Shown here piece after piece: positions 4,064 through 40,159 of a stretch of DNA of 42,754 nucleotides. Numbering within the stretch: position 1 is the first letter of the stretch; every line of letters starts with the position of its first letter. The DNA comes from a virus (taxonomy: Duplodnaviria; Caudoviricetes), in IMG/VR virus record IMGVR_UViG_3300037424_000179, positions 1 through 42,754 of that record, one strand, 5' to 3'. Under the pieces are notes generated by a model. That model searched no databases and had not been told where the DNA came from. It was given only the letters and a program-made list of their open reading frames with translations. A program made the position numbers and the translations under genes.

Positions 4064-5746
4064 ATGCCATCAGCTTCTTTCATAACAGAGATGAATCGGA
4101 AGCAGGGTTCACAGCCTGTTGTTAAATTAGAATTTATTGATAAGGCTAATAATGTTACAGATATTTCTCGATATTATGTAAGCGGTGCAAACTTTGAGTT
4201 TTCAAGAGAGAGAGCGCCCGATGTTATCCAGGCAGGCAATTTCGATGTGGTTGTCATTAATTCAGATAATACATTCTCAGAATTTGATCCGTCCTCTCTC
4301 TTTTATAATCTGGACTATACCCTTGCAAAGATTAGAATCTCCCTTGGTTTTGTTTTATCCACAGGTCTTATTGAATACGAAACACAGGCAGTTGGATATA
4401 TAGACCAGATCACAACCAATCCAATTGAATCAACAGTGACCTTAAGATGCAGAGATATCATGCGAAGGATTCTCGACTCTGTTTTGAGGAATAGGCCAGA
4501 GAACGAAATCCCTATCCTTGGAACATCTTCTGGAAACGGGTTTATGTCAAAGGTATCAACTCTTCCATTCTCGACGGTAAATGAAGATTGGACTGTTACC
4601 TGTACGACCGGAGGGGTTGATTCCGTTGCTCAATTTTCTGTTGTTGGAACTGTATCCGGAAGCATTGGGCCTGCAACATCAGGGATTGACTTCTCCGACA
4701 CAACTGCTGGAATAAAATTCAAAATATCCTCTGGCAGTATTGCTTGGGATATCGGGGATGTATTTACTTTTTCAACAAATCAGGCTCCAGAGTGGGATAC
4801 GATTAATGCCGTTAAAATTATCTGGTCTATTCTTACAGGATACAACTGGGACAGCGACACGCAGGAACCATTTTCTAGTCTTGTTTTAAATTTTGACCGG
4901 ACACAATCCTCTGCCAATGTTGATATTGATTATGACTCTTTCGTTTCCACAATTTCTGGGATTGATGAACTTGGAGAAGCTCTGAAATTAAAAGGGTATA
5001 TAGATTATGAAAGCTCCGCATCCGGATTCATAGAGGGAATACTTGTTTTATTTTTTGGTTCATTATTCACCGGCTCAGATGGAAGGATAAAGATACAGAC
5101 ACATCTCCCCATTTTCGGAGGCACGGCTCTCGATGGATCATTCTCAGACGCTGACAAAATATCAGCTCTTGGTTATTCAAAAACAATTGATGAAGTTATT
5201 AATTTTGTTACTGTCGCTTACAAGAATTCTGATATCTGGGGATTCTCTGATGAGTCGCAACCGTTGGACGGCGCTTATTCTTTTTCTGATTCAGCCTCTA
5301 TAACAAAATATGGGAAACTCCTTTATTCTCTTACGACAGATTGGTTCGTGCCAAATGGAATTCACATTAAGGGAGTGGGGTCAACCTTGATTCAGAAGTT
5401 TTCAGAGCCTCCATTAAACATTGAATTTCAAACTGGATTAGATGCTTTGCTTATGAACGTTGGTGATTACGTTGACGTAACTGATACGAAATATTATCTT
5501 TCTGATGTTAAGGGAGAGATTGTTCAGGTATCAAGAAGTTTTGATAATGAGCCGAAGTCTGTTTCTATTCGTATAAGACGTGACAATGATATTGATTTAC
5601 TATGGGGATTCCTAGGATCAAATGTTGATGAGGGCGATGGAGAAAGCCCCCAATCTTCTAATTGGGACACAGCCACAGAACTTGATAAAAGATTTATTTA
5701 CCTTTCACAAACAGGAGGCGGTGGGCCTGACTACCGGATGTATTGA
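4064..5746 (+). CDS. Putative tail hub / Tal-like baseplate protein
   Basis: 560 aa, acidic and beta-rich; TVTLRCRD, DEVINFVTV, SITKYGK and LLMNVGDYVDVTD segments resemble siphophage hub proteins; position in the tail module. Confidence 0.6.
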   Translation: MPSASFITEMNRKQGSQPVVKLEFIDKANNVTDISRYYVSGANFEFSRERAPDVIQAGNFDVVVINSDNTFSEFDPSSLFYNLDYTLAKIRISLGFVLSTGLIEYETQAVGYIDQITTNPIESTVTLRCRDIMRRILDSVLRNRPENEIPILGTSSGNGFMSKVSTLPFSTVNEDWTVTCTTGGVDSVAQFSVVGTVSGSIGPATSGIDFSDTTAGIKFKISSGSIAWDIGDVFTFSTNQAPEWDTINAVKIIWSILTGYNWDSDTQEPFSSLVLNFDRTQSSANVDIDYDSFVSTISGIDELGEALKLKGYIDYESSASGFIEGILVLFFGSLFTGSDGRIKIQTHLPIFGGTALDGSFSDADKISALGYSKTIDEVINFVTVAYKNSDIWGFSDESQPLDGAYSFSDSASITKYGKLLYSLTTDWFVPNGIHIKGVGSTLIQKFSEPPLNIEFQTGLDALLMNVGDYVDVTDTKYYLSDVKGEIVQVSRSFDNEPKSVSIRIRRDNDIDLLWGFLGSNVDEGDGESPQSSNWDTATELDKRFIYLSQTGGGGPDYRMY

Positions 5747-8728: not shown

Positions 8729-9271
8729 ATGGCAAGGAATACATCATTTATGGAATGGTTAGATCAGACCAGAAGGATAAACAAATCCGTCGATATGATC
8801 TGTATGGAAACTATTGATGGGATCGTCAAGGCGATTAGATATGTTGATCGAAGAGTTATTTATAGAAATAAGAAATTCTTTGAACGCTTCTGCACCTATT
8901 ACCACAAACCCAACCCTGTTAATATCATCAGACAAATCAAGAAAAAAGATATGTCCCCTTGCCACTCGTGCCACAAAGATCAAAACGCCACCAAGATTCT
9001 CTCGGAGTACGTGCAGGGATCGATCAATAGGTGTTGGACGGGAATCGATATGGTTCAAACACAATGGTTCGAGATCATAGACTTCATGTTTGAAATGCCA
9101 CAGCTCGTTAACCCGAATGCCATTGATGAATATATAGCCGGAAGAATCACCGAGGTGTGCCGAAACAATCGAAAGCTAAACCCACTTGCAAACGGAACAG
9201 CAAAAAGATTCGGGAGATACTGGCGTGACAAGGATGGGAAATGGCGACAAGAAAAACGAAGGAGATTTTAA
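8729..9271 (+). CDS. Hypothetical basic protein with a CxxCH motif
   Basis: 180-aa ORF, SD AAGGA, abuts both neighbours. Confidence 0.55.
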   Translation: MARNTSFMEWLDQTRRINKSVDMICMETIDGIVKAIRYVDRRVIYRNKKFFERFCTYYHKPNPVNIIRQIKKKDMSPCHSCHKDQNATKILSEYVQGSINRCWTGIDMVQTQWFEIIDFMFEMPQLVNPNAIDEYIAGRITEVCRNNRKLNPLANGTAKRFGRYWRDKDGKWRQEKRRRF

Positions 9272-9981
9272 TGGACGGATCAACAATGACAATCGAAGAG
9301 ATTAAGAAACACTTAAGAAAAGATTATGGCAAATGGCCTTGGCAGAAACCAACCAAGGAAGACAGGTTGCAGATTACAGAAGAACAATGGGCACAGATTG
9401 ATTGGACTCCAGAAGAGATTGAACGGAATTGCGCTCTTCCACACAAGATGTGGAACATGAGGAGCGACGATCAGGTTTGGCCTTTATGTTATAGGTGGCG
9501 AGGAGATTCAGCTTATGGGTACAGAGCCGGAGAAGGACACGCCAAGTTTATGCCAGAACTGCCCCAACTTGTGGAGGGTAGAGGGATTGCAAGATGGATG
9601 GCCCGCCACGACACCTCTGTGGTTGAAGTGCCTGAATTCGCAGACTATAGACAAATTTGGAGGCCAGACAACCTGCCTCAAGTTATTGAGTTTTACGAAC
9701 GGAAAGGGGAAAACCCACACTTCGGACAGAAGCTGACAATGCCGAAAGAAGAATTCCTGGCCACCTATTCACCGACACCCTTGCAGAAATTTTCAAAGCG
9801 GTCTAAGTTATTACTTGATCCGCACCACTATTCGTGGCATAGGATGATACAGCAGAACGAACACTATACTGGAGATGACTTTCCTGATTGGGTTGTGTTC
9901 TATCGTATAGGTGCCAGGATGGACAGCTTCGACTCTTACTATGTCCTAAACGCTTTTTACTTTGGATTGCACTGGAATTAG
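9271..9981 (+). CDS. Hypothetical Trp/Tyr-rich protein
   Basis: ATG 9271 overlaps the upstream TAA and follows AAGGAG; 236 aa. Confidence 0.6.
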   Translation: MDGSTMTIEEIKKHLRKDYGKWPWQKPTKEDRLQITEEQWAQIDWTPEEIERNCALPHKMWNMRSDDQVWPLCYRWRGDSAYGYRAGEGHAKFMPELPQLVEGRGIARWMARHDTSVVEVPEFADYRQIWRPDNLPQVIEFYERKGENPHFGQKLTMPKEEFLATYSPTPLQKFSKRSKLLLDPHHYSWHRMIQQNEHYTGDDFPDWVVFYRIGARMDSFDSYYVLNAFYFGLHWN

Positions 9982-10718: not shown

Positions 10719-11132
10719 ATGAATATAAAACCTGGAACGACTTATGCTCAAGTAAAGAAGAGTGCAGAGCGTAGCAAGTGGGAAGATTATTTCATCTTCC
10801 ATTTAAAGGTGGCCAAGCTCCCCATCCCAAAGCAACAGTTTAAGTTTGCGGAACACATCGGCCGGAGGTGGCAGGTTGACTTTGCCTGGCCAGACCTTAA
10901 ACTCTTTGTTGAGATAGAGGGTGGCATCTGGCGCAAGAATAAGTTTGGCAATTGGGCCGGAGCGCATACCCACCCAACGGCCGTATTAAGAGACATAGAG
11001 AAATACAACCATATGGCCTTGCTCGGCTATCGATTGTTTAGGTTCTCAGATAAAGACCTCAGGGACGGGTCAGCCATCGAAATGATGAAAAAGGTCTTTT
11101 CCCCACAAATTTCAGGGGGGATTGGCGGTTAA
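10719..11132 (+). CDS. Vsr/DUF559-like PD-(D/E)XK endonuclease (possible resolvase)
   Basis: QFKF..RRWQVDFAWPDLKLFVEIEGGIW...H...RDIEKYN...GYRLFRF. Confidence 0.8.
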   Translation: MNIKPGTTYAQVKKSAERSKWEDYFIFHLKVAKLPIPKQQFKFAEHIGRRWQVDFAWPDLKLFVEIEGGIWRKNKFGNWAGAHTHPTAVLRDIEKYNHMALLGYRLFRFSDKDLRDGSAIEMMKKVFSPQISGGIGG

Positions 11133-11562: not shown

Positions 11563-11650
11563 TTAACACGCCCCGAGCCTAGAATCGTTTTAAATTGGTT
11601 TTATGGGTAATTCCTCACAAACCACTTTTTAATCGAATTTCGCCTTCCCC

Positions 11651-11659
11651 TGTGGATAA
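11651..11659 (-). promoter_or_regulatory. Consensus DnaA box (TTATCCACA on the - strand)
   Basis: TGTGGATAA in the largest intergenic region, followed by an AT-rich tract (11660-11715). Confidence 0.55.
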
Positions 11660-11682
11660 CTTAAAATAAGACAAAATAGTTG

Positions 11683-11711
11683 TTTACTTCTGGAAAATCA
11701 TTTTTAATAAT
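11683..11711 (+). promoter_or_regulatory. Putative sigma70 promoter for the non-coding RNA
   Basis: TTTACT-17 bp-AATAAT; predicted start ~11718, at the base of the first hairpin. Confidence 0.45.
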
Positions 11712-11717
11712 TTACCT

Positions 11718-12190
11718 ATCTCGGGGGAGATGAAGATTAGGTCATAGGCTTTCAATTTAAGCCTTCGGCACACCTATGACTCTACATTCTTCCCCTAAAA
11801 GATTGTTCTTTCCGATAAAGTGCCGAGGGCTTTTCTTTTTGTAGGGATAGTTTAAGATTGTTTTTCAACCCTAAGTTTATAGTTGATGGTTTAGTGTAAA
11901 TGAAAAACAAAAGAACTAGGATGTTGCGCCGTTAATCTGGGCAAGTGAGACCCTTAACACCCAGTCATTACCCAAGGAAAAGTTTATAACAGGTTTATTT
12001 AAAACCTGTATGGAAGATCTTGAAGAAGGTTTTCCGGAAACATCCGACGCTTTATCTTCTAAGCGTGCTAAGTAGGAAGGCAGACAACCATTTGGGGGGG
12101 ATCGGCTAAACGGAGATCCAAACTATGACCTGCCATTAAGACCATATAACCTAAAAGAGAAACCCTTGGGGGAGTATAAGGGTTATAGTC
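11718..12190 (+). ncRNA. Putative ~470-nt structured non-coding RNA / replication-origin RNA
   Basis: No ORF of 60 aa or more in any frame; about ten complementary stem pairs found by eye, several with G-U pairs that favour the + strand. Confidence 0.55.
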
Positions 12191-12219
12191 AATAAACATT
12201 AAATGAACCTGGAGGAAAA

Positions 12220-12636
12220 ATGATTGTTACTTATTATGACGGTTGCTGTGAACCAAGGAACCCTGGAGGCAATACGGGATTTGGAGCCGTCATTTCAAAA
12301 GATGGAATTGAACTTAAACGCCTGTCTATGTATTCTCCTGCCCACCCTCAGAATTCAAATAACGTTGCTGAATACAAAGGGCTTACCTGTGCCCTTGAAT
12401 GGTTATTAGAGAACGGATTTGAAAAACAAAAGACCATTTTCTATGGCGATAATATGATGACCGTTCGGCAGATGAATGGACAGTGGAAGGCCAAGAGTGG
12501 TATGTATATCCCACATTATTTAAAGGCCAGAGATATTGGGAAGCGGTTCAATAATCTTAAATTTATTTGGATTCCAAGGGAAGAGAATGGGGTTGCTGAT
12601 GAGCTATCAAAAGCCCAACTCATTAAAAAAAAATAA
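12220..12636 (+). CDS. rnhA: Ribonuclease HI
   Basis: YYDGC, SNNVAEY, GDN, FIWIPREENGVADELS: all four acidic catalytic positions present. Confidence 0.92.
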   Translation: MIVTYYDGCCEPRNPGGNTGFGAVISKDGIELKRLSMYSPAHPQNSNNVAEYKGLTCALEWLLENGFEKQKTIFYGDNMMTVRQMNGQWKAKSGMYIPHYLKARDIGKRFNNLKFIWIPREENGVADELSKAQLIKKK

Positions 12637-12655
12637 AATTCTGTATACAACCCCT

Positions 12656-12684
12656 TTGGAAAATATATAATTTCTCTTTATAGT
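12656..12684 (+). promoter_or_regulatory. Putative sigma70 promoter of the recombination operon
   Basis: TTGGAA-17 bp-TATAGT, with GTATAC palindromes at 12643 and 12683. Confidence 0.55.
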
Positions 12685-12732: not shown

Positions 12733-13554
12733 ATGAATGAAATTGAACAATCGTCTCAATCCCAAATCCACCCGTCCGATCCCGTCTCGTCAAACTCGCT
12801 CGATGTCCTCATTGAAAAAGCCAGGCAGTACCCACGCAACATCGCCCTCGCCATGAAAAACGCTAACAAGGAACTCGAAATGGTTCCCGACCTCGCCGAG
12901 CGTGCTTACTATTCTATTCCTTACAAGGAAGGGAATTCTCGTAGGATGGTCGAAGGACTTTCAATCAGAGCTGCAATGGCACTTGCTCGATACTGGGGGA
13001 ACATTGCCACTGATGGCAGAATTATTGGAGAGGACAAATCCAACTATTACGTCAAAGGATTTTGCATTGATCTTGAAAGCAACATCCAAAATTCTACTGA
13101 AGTCAAAGTCTCGAAATTCTACAAGCCGAAAGGCTCCCAAGGTGTAGTCCCATGGAACGCCGACATGATGCGGAACCAAGTTTTATCTGGGATCAGTAAG
13201 GCCAGGCGGAACGCCGTGTTGATGTCCTTGCCTGAATGGGTTAAGGATGGTTACTTTAACAAAGCCAAAGAACTCGTTATTAAACCCACCTCGACCGCTC
13301 TCCCCGTTGAATCAATCCAGGTTAGAATCATGAAAGGCAAGAACGCCATTTGCACCGAGTTTAAAATTGAACCCGATGTGTTGGATGATTACCTTATGGA
13401 ATTCTTTGACGGCTACGATGATGCTTCCTATCTCGTCCACCTTCGTGGAATTTACAATGCCATTAAAGAAGGGAATGTTTCCCCTGGCGATATACGGCAA
13501 AAGAAATCTCCGGCCATGCCAACCGAGAAGAAATCCGATGACGGCGCAGTTTAG
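12733..13554 (+). CDS. Putative single-strand annealing / recombination protein
   Basis: ARQYPRN..AYYSIP..VEGLSIRAA..LARYWGN..SKARRNAVL..LP pattern; directly upstream of the exonuclease; function inferred from context. Confidence 0.55.
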   Translation: MNEIEQSSQSQIHPSDPVSSNSLDVLIEKARQYPRNIALAMKNANKELEMVPDLAERAYYSIPYKEGNSRRMVEGLSIRAAMALARYWGNIATDGRIIGEDKSNYYVKGFCIDLESNIQNSTEVKVSKFYKPKGSQGVVPWNADMMRNQVLSGISKARRNAVLMSLPEWVKDGYFNKAKELVIKPTSTALPVESIQVRIMKGKNAICTEFKIEPDVLDDYLMEFFDGYDDASYLVHLRGIYNAIKEGNVSPGDIRQKKSPAMPTEKKSDDGAV

Positions 13555-14153: not shown

Positions 14154-14768
14154 ATGATTAATGCTACCGAAGTAGAAACAAAGACATTTGAATTGGAAAG
14201 AAAAGAACACGTGAACCTAGCCACCATCGCATACGAAACCGCAAAATCTATCAGAGATGCAGATTCGTTTCAATGCGCCACCGACCTCCTTCTCAAAATC
14301 AAAACTCGCCGTAACCGTTGGAAAGAATTCATTGATCCACTTGTCAGGTCTGCCAAAGAAGCCCACAACAAAGCCTTAGCGAAGCGCAGGGAGGTTGAAG
14401 AACCTTTGCGCCAGGCCGAAGAAGATATCCTTAAGCCGGCCATTGAAAAGTGGATTGCCAAACAGGAGGACATCAGACGGGCGCAGGAAGTGGAAATGAA
14501 AAACCAAACCGGATTCGATATCGTTCTCCCTACCGTAACCAAGAAGGAAGGCATTTCATACAGAACAACATGGAGCGCAGAAGTTGTGGACATGAAATTG
14601 TTTGTTGATGCAATCGTATGTGGCAGGATTCCCATCGAAGCCGTCATTCCCAATATGCCCATGCTTAACAACATGGCAAAAACTTTTAAAACAGGTCTTG
14701 GATGGCCAGGCGTTCAGGTTAAATCTGAAAAGTCTGTGTCAGCAAGACCAAACATGGAGGCATTATAA
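14154..14768 (+). CDS. Coiled-coil phage protein of the recombination module
   Basis: Long helical body and C-terminal GISYRTTWSAEVVD...PGVQV; RBS motif upstream. Confidence 0.6.
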   Translation: MINATEVETKTFELERKEHVNLATIAYETAKSIRDADSFQCATDLLLKIKTRRNRWKEFIDPLVRSAKEAHNKALAKRREVEEPLRQAEEDILKPAIEKWIAKQEDIRRAQEVEMKNQTGFDIVLPTVTKKEGISYRTTWSAEVVDMKLFVDAIVCGRIPIEAVIPNMPMLNNMAKTFKTGLGWPGVQVKSEKSVSARPNMEAL

Positions 14769-15172
14769 TGGTACGCAGAGGACAACCCGCAGACATTCAA
14801 ACAAAAGTGATTAAGGTATTCGATGAACAATCAAGCACATACGACAGGGGGGGAGGATCAGAGTTAAGAGTGATCGCATGGATCGTAAACGGAAGCGAGA
14901 AGCAACCGCAACTCGAACGCCGTGAATGGTGGATGACCGAGGATGGAACGAAGCGTGCAGGGAAAGCCAAGGGCTTAACCTCTTCCGACTTTCAATTCAT
15001 CCTTCAACACGCCAGAGAAATAGGCGAAGCATTAGGGCTTCCGGCCAAGATAGTACAACAGGCTTTAATGACCGTTAATGAACCGTCAGCCAATGGGGAA
15101 AAGACATCCGACGAAAAGACCGCCGACGAGCTTGCCACTGAAACCGTGGACGCAGGTGCGACAGGGTGGTAA
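14768..15172 (+). CDS. PC4/YdbC-like single-stranded DNA-binding protein
   Basis: ELRVIAW..NG..PQLERREW...KAKGLT..DF pattern plus an acidic C-terminal tail ending in Trp. Confidence 0.65.
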   Translation: MVRRGQPADIQTKVIKVFDEQSSTYDRGGGSELRVIAWIVNGSEKQPQLERREWWMTEDGTKRAGKAKGLTSSDFQFILQHAREIGEALGLPAKIVQQALMTVNEPSANGEKTSDEKTADELATETVDAGATGW

Positions 15173-18395: not shown

Positions 18396-18710
18396 GTGGC
18401 GATGATTATGAGCATTAATTGGGAAGCAGAAATCAAAAAGGCAAAGATGTTTTGCACACAGGCGACGGCATTAAAATATCTTGATCTTGCAGAGCAGATT
18501 CTTAAAGAGAGAAACGAGGCCGTTGAAAATCTGTTTTGCATGGTCAATCAACACTGTCACGACCCCAAGGAAGACGGGCGCTTAAATTCTTATGGGTTGA
18601 CAGACAATATGATGGCGCTTGAATTCTTAGAACGAATGGGTTACGTCAGCATCAAGAAGAGGATCGGCCGGGGTGCGATCGCTGAGATTGTGGACAGAAA
18701 AGAGGGATGA
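18396..18710 (+). CDS. Hypothetical protein (start may be ATG 18402 or 18408)
   Basis: Fills the gap in the tightly packed + strand operon. Confidence 0.55.
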   Translation: MAMIMSINWEAEIKKAKMFCTQATALKYLDLAEQILKERNEAVENLFCMVNQHCHDPKEDGRLNSYGLTDNMMALEFLERMGYVSIKKRIGRGAIAEIVDRKEG

Positions 18711-36663: not shown

Positions 36664-37761
36664 ATGCCAACTCCAATGGATGTTCAGGCAGATGAATTTA
36701 GAAGTGCTGGAATCCCTATTAAGATGGGGATTAAGACCGCTAAGAATGAGAAAGGAAAAGGCGACTTGCCAAAAGACTTCTCTGACATAGCCAGTAATAC
36801 GTGGCTTCTCAGGTGGGCAAGACATTCGGCACAGAATTATCCAATCGTATTAAGGTCTGACGGTGTCCGGTTTTTAACGGGTGCTTGTACCAAGATTCCC
36901 GCTTTCGTTGTTGGGATAGGGCCAAGCCTCGATGCCAATATTGAAGAACTGAAACGAGCATATAGGAGAGCGATCATCATTGCCACGGATGCGTCGCTTT
37001 ATCCGCTCCTTGCTAAAGGCATTAAGCCGGACATCGTCATCAATTTTGATTGCCAGAGGGATCAGAAAACCCTCTGGGAAAACTTACCTAAGAATGCAGG
37101 TGACATCACTTTGATTGCCAACTCCTGCTGCCACCCCAATATTTTTAAATCCTATCCAGGGCCATTGATGTTCTATAACCAATGGCACAAAAAGGATGTA
37201 TTCGTTGACCGCCTTCTCCCGTATATCTTCCCACACTTGGGCGACCTCCCGAGCGTCGGGACAGTCGGGAACATGGGAATTATGTTGGCCTCTAAGATGG
37301 GATGCGATCCGATTATGACAGTTGGAATGGATCTCTGTTACCAGAAGAAAGGTGATGGGTGGCAGTACAGATGCGAAGATTACCGATATGGGAAGGATTA
37401 CATGGAGGTATATGGATGGATGAAACGGGAGAATAAAACGCTCTATGATAACGATGAACGGGTTAAACGGTCTTATGAAAAGAAGATCGGTGAGAACGTA
37501 TACCGCATTGACCCCGAGCTGGATGCCTACCAGGAGTGCCTTGTCGGGCTGACCGATGGCCTCCGAATGAAGATAATCGACTGTTCCATTGAAGGAATCT
37601 TAAGAGAATATTTTAGAAACATATCTATAACACAAGCCATAAATGAATTCTGTACTGAGGAATTGAGCGAGGGAAGAACATCTCTTTTCCGCTTGAAGGA
37701 TCTTGTGAAGGACGGGAGAAAACAATGGGGGGAAGATTCAAAAAATGGTCACAGCTATTAG
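36664..37761 (+). CDS. Maf/DUF115 (MAF_flag10, MptE-like) family putative glycosyltransferase
   Basis: AFVVGIGPSL, IIIATDAS, GIKPDIVINFD, GTVGNMG..LA..MGCDPIMTVGMDLCY. Confidence 0.82.
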   Translation: MPTPMDVQADEFRSAGIPIKMGIKTAKNEKGKGDLPKDFSDIASNTWLLRWARHSAQNYPIVLRSDGVRFLTGACTKIPAFVVGIGPSLDANIEELKRAYRRAIIIATDASLYPLLAKGIKPDIVINFDCQRDQKTLWENLPKNAGDITLIANSCCHPNIFKSYPGPLMFYNQWHKKDVFVDRLLPYIFPHLGDLPSVGTVGNMGIMLASKMGCDPIMTVGMDLCYQKKGDGWQYRCEDYRYGKDYMEVYGWMKRENKTLYDNDERVKRSYEKKIGENVYRIDPELDAYQECLVGLTDGLRMKIIDCSIEGILREYFRNISITQAINEFCTEELSEGRTSLFRLKDLVKDGRKQWGEDSKNGHSY

Positions 37762-38860
37762 TGAAAAAGGAGTTAAATGTAACGATCTTCAATGTCAGGT
37801 TCACACAGTGGACGCTGTTAGAAGATCTCTGGAGCCTCGTAACGTTCCGGAAAAGACGATGTCTGTCCTTCATCTCACAACCACCGACCCTGCCGGCGCA
37901 GGATACAACCTTGTCCAAGCCCTCCAAAGATACACTTGTGCGAGCGCACGGATCTTTACATCCCACCCAAACGTCTACGGACACCCAGAAGATATAGGGA
38001 CGGTATACGATTACTATGACGAACTAGAACAATTGTTGCTTGATGCAGACGTTCTCCACTTCCATAAGATCAATGAGGACTATGAGATTGGCCTCCCATT
38101 AAACTCATCAAGAAAAAGGTCTTGGAGAATAAAAGATTTCCTTACCCTCCGAAAACAAAAGGCACTCGTTTATCACATTCACGGACATCCTTTCGAGCGG
38201 AAAAATCCAGTCGAAAATGGAAAACAGTATTCTGAAAAGAAAGCTCGTTTGCTCGCCAGCACCCCCGATTTGGAAGCACTTTATAAACCACATTGCGATG
38301 TTGAATACTTCCCAAACTGTGTGCCGCAGGATGATCTTCTTTATGCTCCACGTGGAACAAATAAGATGCTGACTGATTCAAAAGGATTAACCAGATACAT
38401 TGTGGCGCATACGGTTAGCGTCCCGAGCCTTAAAAACGTGGCACAGATTGAAGAGGCGGTCAGATATGTATCCAGAACAAAGCCTGTCAACTATTTACAG
38501 CTTTCTGATATGCCATTCGATAAGGTTATGAGGGTTAAGAGACACTCACATATCATCTTCGACCATATGCAAGGATATTATGGCCTCGCCTCCCTTGAAG
38601 GATTTAGCCTTGGGAAGCCAGTCATCTGTGGGATTAACGATTACAATATCAAGGCGGTCTGCAACTTCTTTGGCATAGGGGATTCCCACCCTTGGCAGAT
38701 AGCGAGGACGCTTCAAGAGCTTAAAGATACCCTTATGGATTTAATTTCTAACCCTGAAATGATGGATGCTGTTGGGTGGCAAGGCAGACAGTTTATGGAA
38801 AATACATGGAGTGATAAGAATGTCGCAACCAGATTGGCCCAAATCTATTCCTCCCTTTAG
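37745..38860 (+). CDS. GT-B fold (GT4-like) glycosyltransferase
   Basis: DPAGAGY, ADVLHFH, YFPN, IIFDHMQGYYGLASLEGFSLGKPVI, GRQFMENTWS. Confidence 0.8.
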   Translation: MVTAISEKGVKCNDLQCQVHTVDAVRRSLEPRNVPEKTMSVLHLTTTDPAGAGYNLVQALQRYTCASARIFTSHPNVYGHPEDIGTVYDYYDELEQLLLDADVLHFHKINEDYEIGLPLNSSRKRSWRIKDFLTLRKQKALVYHIHGHPFERKNPVENGKQYSEKKARLLASTPDLEALYKPHCDVEYFPNCVPQDDLLYAPRGTNKMLTDSKGLTRYIVAHTVSVPSLKNVAQIEEAVRYVSRTKPVNYLQLSDMPFDKVMRVKRHSHIIFDHMQGYYGLASLEGFSLGKPVICGINDYNIKAVCNFFGIGDSHPWQIARTLQELKDTLMDLISNPEMMDAVGWQGRQFMENTWSDKNVATRLAQIYSSL

Positions 38861-39620
38861 AGGAAACCCTCCCGATGATACGGTGGGGATTGTTATTCCG
38901 TTAAAGGACAATCTCAAATTCTTTAAACTGGCCTTTCATTCCGTCCTTAGTTTTACCGACCACCCCTATATGCTGACCGTCGTTGACAATATGTCATCCA
39001 TGTCCACCCGTACATATTTGGAATCCATCAGAAAGAATCACCCGATCAATGTGATCCGATACCAGAAGGAGTTTAACTTCTCCGCAGAAATAAATTCCGG
39101 AATGAACTATATGTTTAAGAACTCTGGTGTAAAATATGGTCTGGCGTTGAATTCGGACGTGGTGGTTGAACCTGGTTGGCTGTCCAATATGGTGCAGATG
39201 ATAAACGGGAATCCGAAATGGGGGATCTCAGGGCCAGTTTCAAACATAGCCATCAATTCACAGGAAGGCAGAAAGGGCAGAGACATCATAGCGACTGATT
39301 ACGTTTCAGGATTCTGTATGTTGTTCAAGAGAGAAGTCTATGAAACACTTAATGGGTTCGATGAAAACTATCATGGTGGGTGCTACGAGGACAGGGATTT
39401 TTGTTACAGAGCATCCAATCTTGGATGGAGATCTATTGTTGATACGTCGGTGTACATACATCACTTCTGGAAGGCAACCCGTCGATCCGACCCAAGATCG
39501 GAAACTCAAGTTGTGGAGAATCGAAACAGATTTTTTAGCAAATTCCCTATTCTCACCAAAGATCCCATTCCTACGAATAGTATTGTCAAGAGAGAATTTA
39601 AAACTTCGGATATATTATGA
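38820..39620 (+). CDS. GT2 family glycosyltransferase
   Basis: Start ATG 38820; IVIP, VVDNMS, NFSAEINSG, LNSD, SGFCML, GFDE..YEDRDFCYRA. Confidence 0.9.
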   Translation: MSQPDWPKSIPPFRGNPPDDTVGIVIPLKDNLKFFKLAFHSVLSFTDHPYMLTVVDNMSSMSTRTYLESIRKNHPINVIRYQKEFNFSAEINSGMNYMFKNSGVKYGLALNSDVVVEPGWLSNMVQMINGNPKWGISGPVSNIAINSQEGRKGRDIIATDYVSGFCMLFKREVYETLNGFDENYHGGCYEDRDFCYRASNLGWRSIVDTSVYIHHFWKATRRSDPRSETQVVENRNRFFSKFPILTKDPIPTNSIVKREFKTSDIL

Positions 39621-40159
39621 CTGTTGAAATTTATAAACAATTCAAGGAGATGCTGAAAGATGAAAGTGACATCCAAGGACACCTGGAGTTTATCAACAGA
39701 GAATCCTGCGGTATTATCCTGGAGTGCGGTGTCCGTGACGGCTATTCCACGACAGCATTACTACTCGGGGTGGACAATGGACGGGGACATTTGTTCTCAG
39801 TCGATAGAAATAATTCTTGCGAAAGGCACTTCCCAAACCATAAAGACTGGACATTCATTAACGCCTATTCAACAGACGAAAAGAAAATATCGGAAGCCGT
39901 CCTTGGCCAAGGTTATCCAGTCCTCTTTGATCTCATCTTCCTCGATACAGAACACACCTATGAGATCGTCTACCAGGAGCTTGCATTATGGTCTGGACAC
40001 CTTAAGCCAAATGGGAAAATACTCATTCACGATGTCACAACATACCACCAAGGAGCCGGAAGAGCCTGTCAATATTTTGCACAAAGAGAGAAGTGGGATT
40101 ACCAAATCCGAGAAGGATGGAACGGATTAGGAATCTTAAAACGAAAGGAGAAAAAATAA
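39617..40159 (+). CDS. Class I SAM-dependent methyltransferase (Methyltransf_24-like)
   Basis: ILECGVRDGYST, FSVD, FDLIFLDTEHTYE, LKPNGKILIHD. Confidence 0.88.
   Translation: MTVEIYKQFKEMLKDESDIQGHLEFINRESCGIILECGVRDGYSTTALLLGVDNGRGHLFSVDRNNSCERHFPNHKDWTFINAYSTDEKKISEAVLGQGYPVLFDLIFLDTEHTYEIVYQELALWSGHLKPNGKILIHDVTTYHQGAGRACQYFAQREKWDYQIREGWNGLGILKRKEKK

Follow-up and report, generated by a model that had tools for sequence, protein, structure and literature searches.

Plasmids of the ColE1 type replicate from a folded RNA in which an internal segment pairs over a long range near the 3' end and a G-rich loop pairs with C-rich template DNA; RNase HI processes the transcript, and a DnaA box lies nearby. 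The passages on ColE1 in one report describe a promoter-driven folded RNA that primes host Pol I with no initiator, and those on cluster A mycobacteriophages present RepA and a non-coding RNA as alternative solutions, with the RNA region located by parA (PMC7157519). In the lactococcal Ceduovirus phages c2, bIL67 and 923, the origin is described as non-coding; it follows an early promoter where the late and early regions meet. Ceduovirus origins come in several unrelated but interchangeable types and replicate without phage proteins, and the non-coding transcript PE1-T has been implicated (PMC7150918, in the passages on these origins). Phages of two host groups are thus known to have RNA-dependent origins, and the passages that describe them give no shared fold or priming mechanism. 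The structured motifs ARRPOF, GEBRO and PAGEV, of 223-349 nt, have been linked to replication, ARRPOF in a rep-independent region (sections of PMC5737381). ARRPOF is described as pseudoknotted and as forming domain-swapped dimers, with a suggested role in transcription (sections of PMC12990946).

In this study, we analysed the whole genome of a phage of Caudoviricetes (record IMGVR_UViG_3300037424_000179; 42,754 nt), hereafter the window. Comparison with relatives indicates that its largest gap is a conserved non-coding module in the initiator slot. With a probability of about 55%, we read this gap as a transcript-dependent, ColE1/c2-like origin that stands in for an initiator gene. Like the Ceduovirus origins, it is ORF-free, promoter-led, situated at the late/early boundary and one of several interchangeable types. 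Unlike them, it carries one RNA fold that recurs across dissimilar phages and swaps with DnaD/O-type initiators. The activity of the Ceduovirus origins has been shown, whereas that of the window element is inferred here. When 51 nt of the core were searched against GenBank phages, only a chance match resulted, although a motif of this length makes such a search a weak test. The RNA origins of cluster A phages maintain plasmid prophages beside parABS, whereas in the window neither parA nor an integrase was matched, and its element occupies the main initiator slot. Neither Rfam nor sequence comparison linked the element to ColE1 RNA II/RNA I. By layout the element appears to work like the c2 and ColE1 origins, and no sequence match placed it in any of these groups.

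A coding-free gap in a genome without a recognised initiator

The ends of the window share a 127-nt overlap, which indicates a circular genome, and its genes lie on one strand. The record class is direct terminal repeats, the CheckV estimate is 80%, and the window is colinear with its nearest relative, G001 (100% complete). The overlap and the colinearity bear out the initial annotation, in which the genome had appeared complete. Among 230 ORFs of at least 50 aa on both strands, 74 plus-strand ORFs were scanned against Pfam and PHROGs, with no match to any initiator, helicase, primase, polymerase or integrase family. The initiator, DnaB and DnaC proteins of relatives likewise gave no BLAST match in the window or in the complete G001. 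The claim that no initiator, helicase, primase or polymerase is recognisable therefore held in all of these searches; most window ORFs match no family, and they could include an initiator hidden from profiles and BLAST.

The gap extends over 657 bp (11563-12219), in agreement with the sole large ORF-free region of about 650 bp noted before, and its longest stop-to-stop frame is 68 aa. A hidden gene or an initiator relic inside the gap was considered and rejected on frame length and on comparison with the initiators of relatives. The gap and its surroundings contain the following features.

10719-11132, plus strand: gene for a DUF559/phrog_503-like nuclease (Pfam/PHROG match), in the same place in relatives; upstream marker of the slot
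11651-11659, minus strand: perfect DnaA box TGTGGATAA (sequence match), 24 nt upstream of the -35 hexamer
11660-11715, no strand: AT-rich tract, 80% AT, in the top 0.1% of windows, overlapping the promoter-like site
11683-11711, plus strand: predicted sigma70-like promoter, score 9/12
11715-11841, plus strand: leader and candidate attenuator, with a terminator-like helix (11759-71/11820-32) with a T tract and a competing helix (11741-48/11773-80)
11842-11873, plus strand: first hairpin with AGGG/CCCT arms, common to the window, L013 and L014
11935-11967, plus strand: conserved core hairpin, with outer helix (11937-41/11960-64), CAA/A internal loop, inner helix and apical loop
11949-11956, plus strand: pairing segment of the apical loop, complementary to 12177-84
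12094-12100, plus strand: G7 run, present without conservation
12168-12184, plus strand: G-rich 3' motif and loop partner (12177-84), conserved in the family; 3' end of the element
12220-12636, plus strand: gene for a Sulfolobus tokodaii-type RNase HI that retains the four acidic residues and loses its C-terminal tail at an A9 run; accessory
12733-13554, plus strand: phrog_3657 gene (PHROG), first of the recombination cluster; marks the slot on its downstream side

The DnaA box, AT-rich tract and promoter-like site that had been reported are all present. A perfect DnaA box arose in 7/2000 shuffles of the gap; a further perfect box lies within a gene at 4355, and matches to a relaxed consensus were at chance level (5 vs 4.66 expected). 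Promoter-like sites of the 9/12 class numbered 8 against 4.2 expected, and 11683-11711 is one of these. On the minus strand, no promoter at 9/12, such as an antisense RNA I would use, was found within the gap. Whole-genome skew was monotonic because all genes lie on one strand, and skew was uninformative for an origin. It did not change across the site (-0.131 vs -0.123, p 0.86), and third-position skew did not flip. The absence of a skew change fits unidirectional replication, yet it lends the origin reading no support.

These signals also bear on whether the locus is a host-DnaA-dependent mimic of oriC, or whether an unrecognised phage initiator acts and the RNA only activates replication or is incidental. 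We regard both as very improbable. The perfect box of the window adjoins the AT tract, and G001 has five tandem boxes in the same slot, as a mimic of oriC would predict; however, the box of the window is single, and a perfect box was found within 500 nt in only 1 of 22 other members of the element family described below, and the reading of the DnaA box as a fixed part is not supported. Within the slot, boxes occurred in the window, in G001 and in L102 (one). As for an unrecognised initiator, the conserved orphan ORFs 8729 and 9241 (8729-9981) are both kept in G001, but their neighbours are lysis genes and neither resembles an initiator family. For 9241, 22 relatives were found, in which Trp/Pro/Arg motifs recur and which belong to no known family; no initiator-like motif was seen in them by eye, and the ESM Atlas gave no usable lead for either ORF. 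ORF 11221 has one relative and is absent from G001.

Exchange of the gap with initiator genes in related phages

Relatives were retrieved through the downstream gene at 12733, which gave 22 distinct loci at 40% identity or more. No solved structure was matched by sequence to the 12733 family, and the label "annealing protein" for its product is a guess drawn from the neighbouring genes. Including the window, the census comprised 23 distinct loci, of which 15 complete slots were counted and 8 partial ones left out. A full initiator gene occupied 5/15 slots (L011, L015, L110, L111 and L115), the core element another five (window, L013, L014, L104 and L117), and other non-coding designs the remaining five (L005, L012, L102, L106 and L116). 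The initiators were assigned by PHROG in L015, L110, L111 (with DnaC) and L115 (with DnaB), and by BLAST to L110 in L011. A full initiator and the core never occurred in the same slot among the 15. DnaB was visible in L108 and L109, which belong to the partial slots; an RNase H-like ORF seen by eye after DnaB in L109 (E 0.08) was left out of the counts.

Parts of initiators were found beside non-coding DNA. A 183-aa ORF of L012, directly after the non-coding DNA, corresponds to the C-terminal half of the initiator shared by L011 and L110 (E 1e-16). In L013, L014 and L117, profile searches showed that only this C-terminal domain of the initiator is kept, as a separate ORF some kb beyond the element. 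The same C-terminal-half profile had no match in the window or G001. In G001, which has no rnhA, the five tandem boxes lie in a different non-coding element of the slot, and no initiator was found by BLAST with the proteins of relatives or by scanning four of its own ORFs. The G001 slot element covaries with L101 at 14/43 predicted pairs (two sequences).

Several other slot designs were observed. A second, unrelated structured element with covarying helices is present at L005:1615-1900 and L101:48-300, with tandem DnaA boxes following in G001. The phage of L102 is near-identical to that of L101 in the next gene, and its own slot (L102:2440-3090) has CT/GA repeats, the DnaA box and a 150-aa ORF with an HNH domain at its end. 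The non-coding stretches L012:9062-9871 and L106:900-1604 have like beginnings and are followed by short ORFs. A third design, L116:1560-2200, lies upstream of an rnhA that is 65% identical to that of the window. It has a small hairpin with an ACAA/C loop, and also a loop that is complementary to a G-rich site lying 166 nt further along; the L116 element is perhaps a divergent core member.

A family of covarying core hairpins

The first search pattern was a hairpin common to the window, L013 and L014. It gave 13 viral matches, 5 of them real, and 34 matches in GTDB, of which the one real match came from an Omnitrophota bin, where its contig looks phage-like. Without the stem requirement, there were at least 119 matches, at least 6 of them with 5 or more pairs. 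A wider pattern was made from the L117 variant with the inner 10-26 nt left free, and it gave 80 matches. Of these, 18 do not overlap an ORF of at least 110 aa; the outer pair was matched in 18/18 of them vs 42/62 of the others, and an inner helix was present in all 18. Four matches overlapping short ORFs were added by eye, and 58 of the wider-pattern matches were left out. The resulting family has 28 sequences, and the phages that carry them are diverse and differ greatly in composition and gene content.

The two inner pairs that adjoin the CAA/A loop were maintained in 26/27 sequences, with 3-4 pair types from among C-G, G-C, U-A and A-U. The core hairpin covaries: the 27-sequence alignment contained 57 double changes vs 16.6 after shuffling, a value reached in 0/500 shuffles, although permutation counts overstate independence because the members are related. 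The outer helix was partly selected by the search pattern, whereas the inner helix was not for 22/27 sequences. CAA was invariant in 27/27, and the facing base was mostly A. Covariation, and not folding energy, thus establishes the RNA structure. The folding energy of the gap was modest (z -2.78 on the plus strand and -1.32 on the minus strand), and 6/143 genome windows outside the gap scored below its best window. Of the roughly 470 nt dense in stems described earlier, the covarying structure stood, whereas the folding energy was unremarkable.

In the passages that define it, the C-loop orients a hairpin loop for tertiary contact (bioRxiv 10.1101/2021.12.02.470923, PMC8570644). The CAA/A loop appears to fit this description, being asymmetric, with a longer strand that starts with C, in a hairpin whose loop would make a tertiary contact. 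Because of this fit, RNA would be favoured over single-stranded DNA, and the plus strand over the minus strand.

Rfam, including the models of ARRPOF, GEBRO and PAGEV, which were described from plasmids, gave no match for the window or member loci (20 loci in one search, and 11 loci at E up to 1 in another). BLAST of the core and member regions against plasmids and GenBank phages gave chance matches only, again a weak test for a short motif. A model search of 151 genomes of the phylum of L200 gave 5 weak matches, which were rejected as mostly coding and without family context. The motif was not described in the literature found; it may be listed without a name in the supplements of PMC5737381 or PMC10690425, and it was absent from the 6 supplementary files of the latter that were searched. 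Judged by these searches, the element is an uncatalogued RNA family absent from Rfam. Since many phage genomes have no recognisable replication gene, such a family offers a searchable and structurally defined candidate substitute.

The members listed share a common layout of promoter-like site, terminator-like leader, core, variable stems and G-rich 3' motif. The G-rich 3' end pointed out in the initial annotation is present and kept across the family as part of the conserved element. Its G7 run, likened there to the G-tract of ColE1, is not conserved: L013 and L014 have no such run at the aligned position, and a second G7 of the window lies inside a gene at 14847. The leader may form an attenuator switch, although the constrained fold of its terminator was poor (-15.7 vs -35.4 kcal/mol).

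Placed downstream of a promoter and of a leader that resembles a terminator, where a long operon on the same strand begins, the element could instead be a cis-regulatory RNA, such as a processive antiterminator or a translational switch, that heads the early operon while replication proceeds by other means. In favour of this role, the next start codon follows the loop partner at a distance of 13-18 nt in L365, L377 and L392. Across 20 members, however, the distance from partner to next ORF ranged from 5 to 493 nt and the downstream genes were unrelated, and in L402 a new promoter-like site follows right after the element. Among the relatives, terminator-like leaders precede full initiator genes as well, whereas the core does not. 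We therefore consider a cis-regulatory role unlikely.

Pairing of the apical loop with the 3' end

The window loop at 11949-56 is complementary to 12177-84, directly after the G-rich motif. In three members both sides are changed relative to the window and still pair: ACGGCUUA with UAAGCCGU in L013, CACCGUCU with AGACGGUG in L387, and UGCAGACUU with AAGUCUGUA in L363. L408 has 11 loop-tail pairs. The score of a loop with its own tail was at least 7 in 15/28 members vs 18% of cross pairs (0/20,000 permutations), and it was below 7 in 13/28, so that the pairing is unconvincing in about half. When tails were placed with a loop-blind anchor, which was designed after the sequences had been viewed, the means were 5.17 for own tails vs 4.06 (0/50,000; 27 sequences, L378 being too short). 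This result was unchanged without 3 near-duplicates. The co-variation of loop and tail offers a clean break-and-restore test.

Covariation points to a folded RNA with long-range pairing near the 3' end, as in ColE1-type primers, with a geometry that differs from that of ColE1: the mostly C-rich loop of the window matches the G-rich non-template strand or RNA tail. Since the displaced non-template strand has the same sequence as the RNA tail, the loop could pair with either. The co-variation is compatible with RNA-RNA pairing and with pairing to the non-template DNA strand alike, and it cannot tell them apart.

The RNase HI gene is an occasional neighbour

Over residues 1-132, the window RNase HI matched that of Sulfolobus tokodaii (PDB 2EHG, 3ALY; E 1e-29) with the acidic residues aligned; D7, E51, D77 and D127 are kept. 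Unlike the S. tokodaii enzyme, the product is phage-encoded; it ends at 138 aa and lacks the C-terminal tail that its nearest relatives conserve. The gene stops at the A9 run, and the conserved xFxIQP tail lies in another frame (12625-12665). The letters of the A9 run were the same in a second sample, and slippage there could give a longer form. The gene, earlier called intact, is so in its catalytic acidic residues, but its conserved C-terminal tail is out of frame. Passages on Sto-type RNase HI enzymes report that they also cut RNA-DNA junctions (PMC4423430), and this would fit primer removal.

The RNase HI had been proposed as a dedicated partner of the gap. PF13456 was matched in 0/25 other genomes (G001 and 24 carriers of the core, 9 of the 25 having a completeness of 90% or above; a control matched 5/14), and an RNase H clade profile had no match in 5 of those 25. 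No convincing core was present at any of 80 phage rnhA loci, and at least 300 nt without a same-strand ORF lay upstream of rnhA at only 14/76 loci. In the slot census, rnhA occurred in 2/15 slots (window and L116), and L001 has it together with an initiator. Linkage of the region to rnhA in relatives was thus not found; of the 12 closest RNase H relatives (P0002-P0013 clade), genomic context was seen for that of L116. At L033:4430-4950, non-coding DNA with G runs and short tandem repeats lies upstream of rnhA, with no core match. On this sampling, rnhA is an occasional accessory neighbour of the element and not a fixed partner.

A strict ColE1-type origin, in which the primer is cut by a dedicated RNase HI of the phage itself, is improbable in light of these counts and of G001, where rnhA is lacking. 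It would account for the start of rnhA 43 nt past the 3' motif, for the catalytic residues kept, and for L116, which independently combines non-coding DNA, possibly a divergent core, with a similar rnhA.

Carriers outside the slot

The carrier scan took ORFs of 130-750 aa from 10 genomes (118/134 and 138/194 of those listed, structural- or spurious-looking ones being dropped) and 11 early ORFs of G002. The count covers 11 other near-complete or terminally repeated genomes; the 230-kb carrier G007 was left out. A full initiator was present in 4/11 (G002, G008, G020 and G024), DnaB only in 1/11 (G015), and nothing was recognised in 6/11, these fractions having no baseline from unrelated phages. 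An integrase match was found in 3/24 carrier genomes. In G015 and G022, the core lies between recT/erf and a RuvC/RusA resolvase, an interval that is the usual position of the lambdoid initiator.

In G020, which has an initiator, a primase fragment and a helicase, the core lies 1.7 kb from parA and there is no integrase. It is the only carrier with parA near the core and resembles the cluster A RNA origins in this; the core there would fit the part of a second origin used in a plasmid state. G024, which encodes both an integrase and an initiator, fits that idea less well. In G008 and G024, the element is separated from the replication genes and lies in the late region in antisense orientation. 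This position, and the coexistence of full initiators in the four genomes, would suit a free-standing structured RNA, such as a scaffold, a multimer, a protein sponge or a packaging aid, in which loop and tail would pair between molecules as in the ARRPOF dimers. Such an RNA leaves the exchange with initiator genes, the stand-alone C-terminal domains and the DnaA boxes unexplained, and we think it quite unlikely. GroEL lies beside terminase in three small carriers (L436:15195-16760, L449:13683-15242 and L458:6091-7626).

A possible mechanism of the proposed transcript-dependent origin

The comparisons above demonstrate slot exchange, conservation and pairing, and the later steps are modelled on ColE1, c2 and cluster A phages. 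Host RNA polymerase would transcribe from about 11715, and read-through of the leader terminator may be the control point. The core loop of the folded RNA would then capture the sequence behind the G-rich motif, either in its own tail as a pseudoknot or in the displaced non-template strand; capture of the displaced strand would stabilise an R-loop. The purine-rich, G-rich 3' end would stay hybridised to the template and prime host Pol I, with the helicase loaded by host PriA or DnaA. In the three relatives L013, L014 and L117, the stand-alone C-terminal half of the initiator may aid this loading. RNase HI would be optional, the host enzyme normally serving, and the phage copy in the window may trim or remove the primer. 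The initial proposal of an RNA-primed origin is supported by the initiator slot, the covarying element, the promoter-like site and the G-rich end; its dedicated RNase HI, the G7 run as a ColE1-type G-tract and a fixed DnaA box are not supported.

More tentatively, an RNA of this kind may have replaced the origin-binding half of DnaD/O-type initiators across phyla, its C-loop-positioned loop gripping the displaced strand and the R-loop priming with host enzymes only. If this is true, the co-variation of loop and target would make the origin programmable, and relatives would preserve intermediate stages of the takeover, in which the RNA stands beside a headless initiator. The conservation of the core across diverse phages would make the priming mechanism of such an origin testable, and it could yield small origins for hosts without vectors.

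Other genes of the window

The ORF at 14768-15172 had no Pfam or PHROG match; from a motif seen by eye, we take its product to resemble a PC4/YdbC-type single-stranded DNA-binding protein. A DNA methylase gene lies at 15166 and a Mom-like gene at 18673. Within the tail cluster, 36664-40159 contains MptE-like, glycosyltransferase and methyltransferase genes, a set that suggests glycosylation of the virion.
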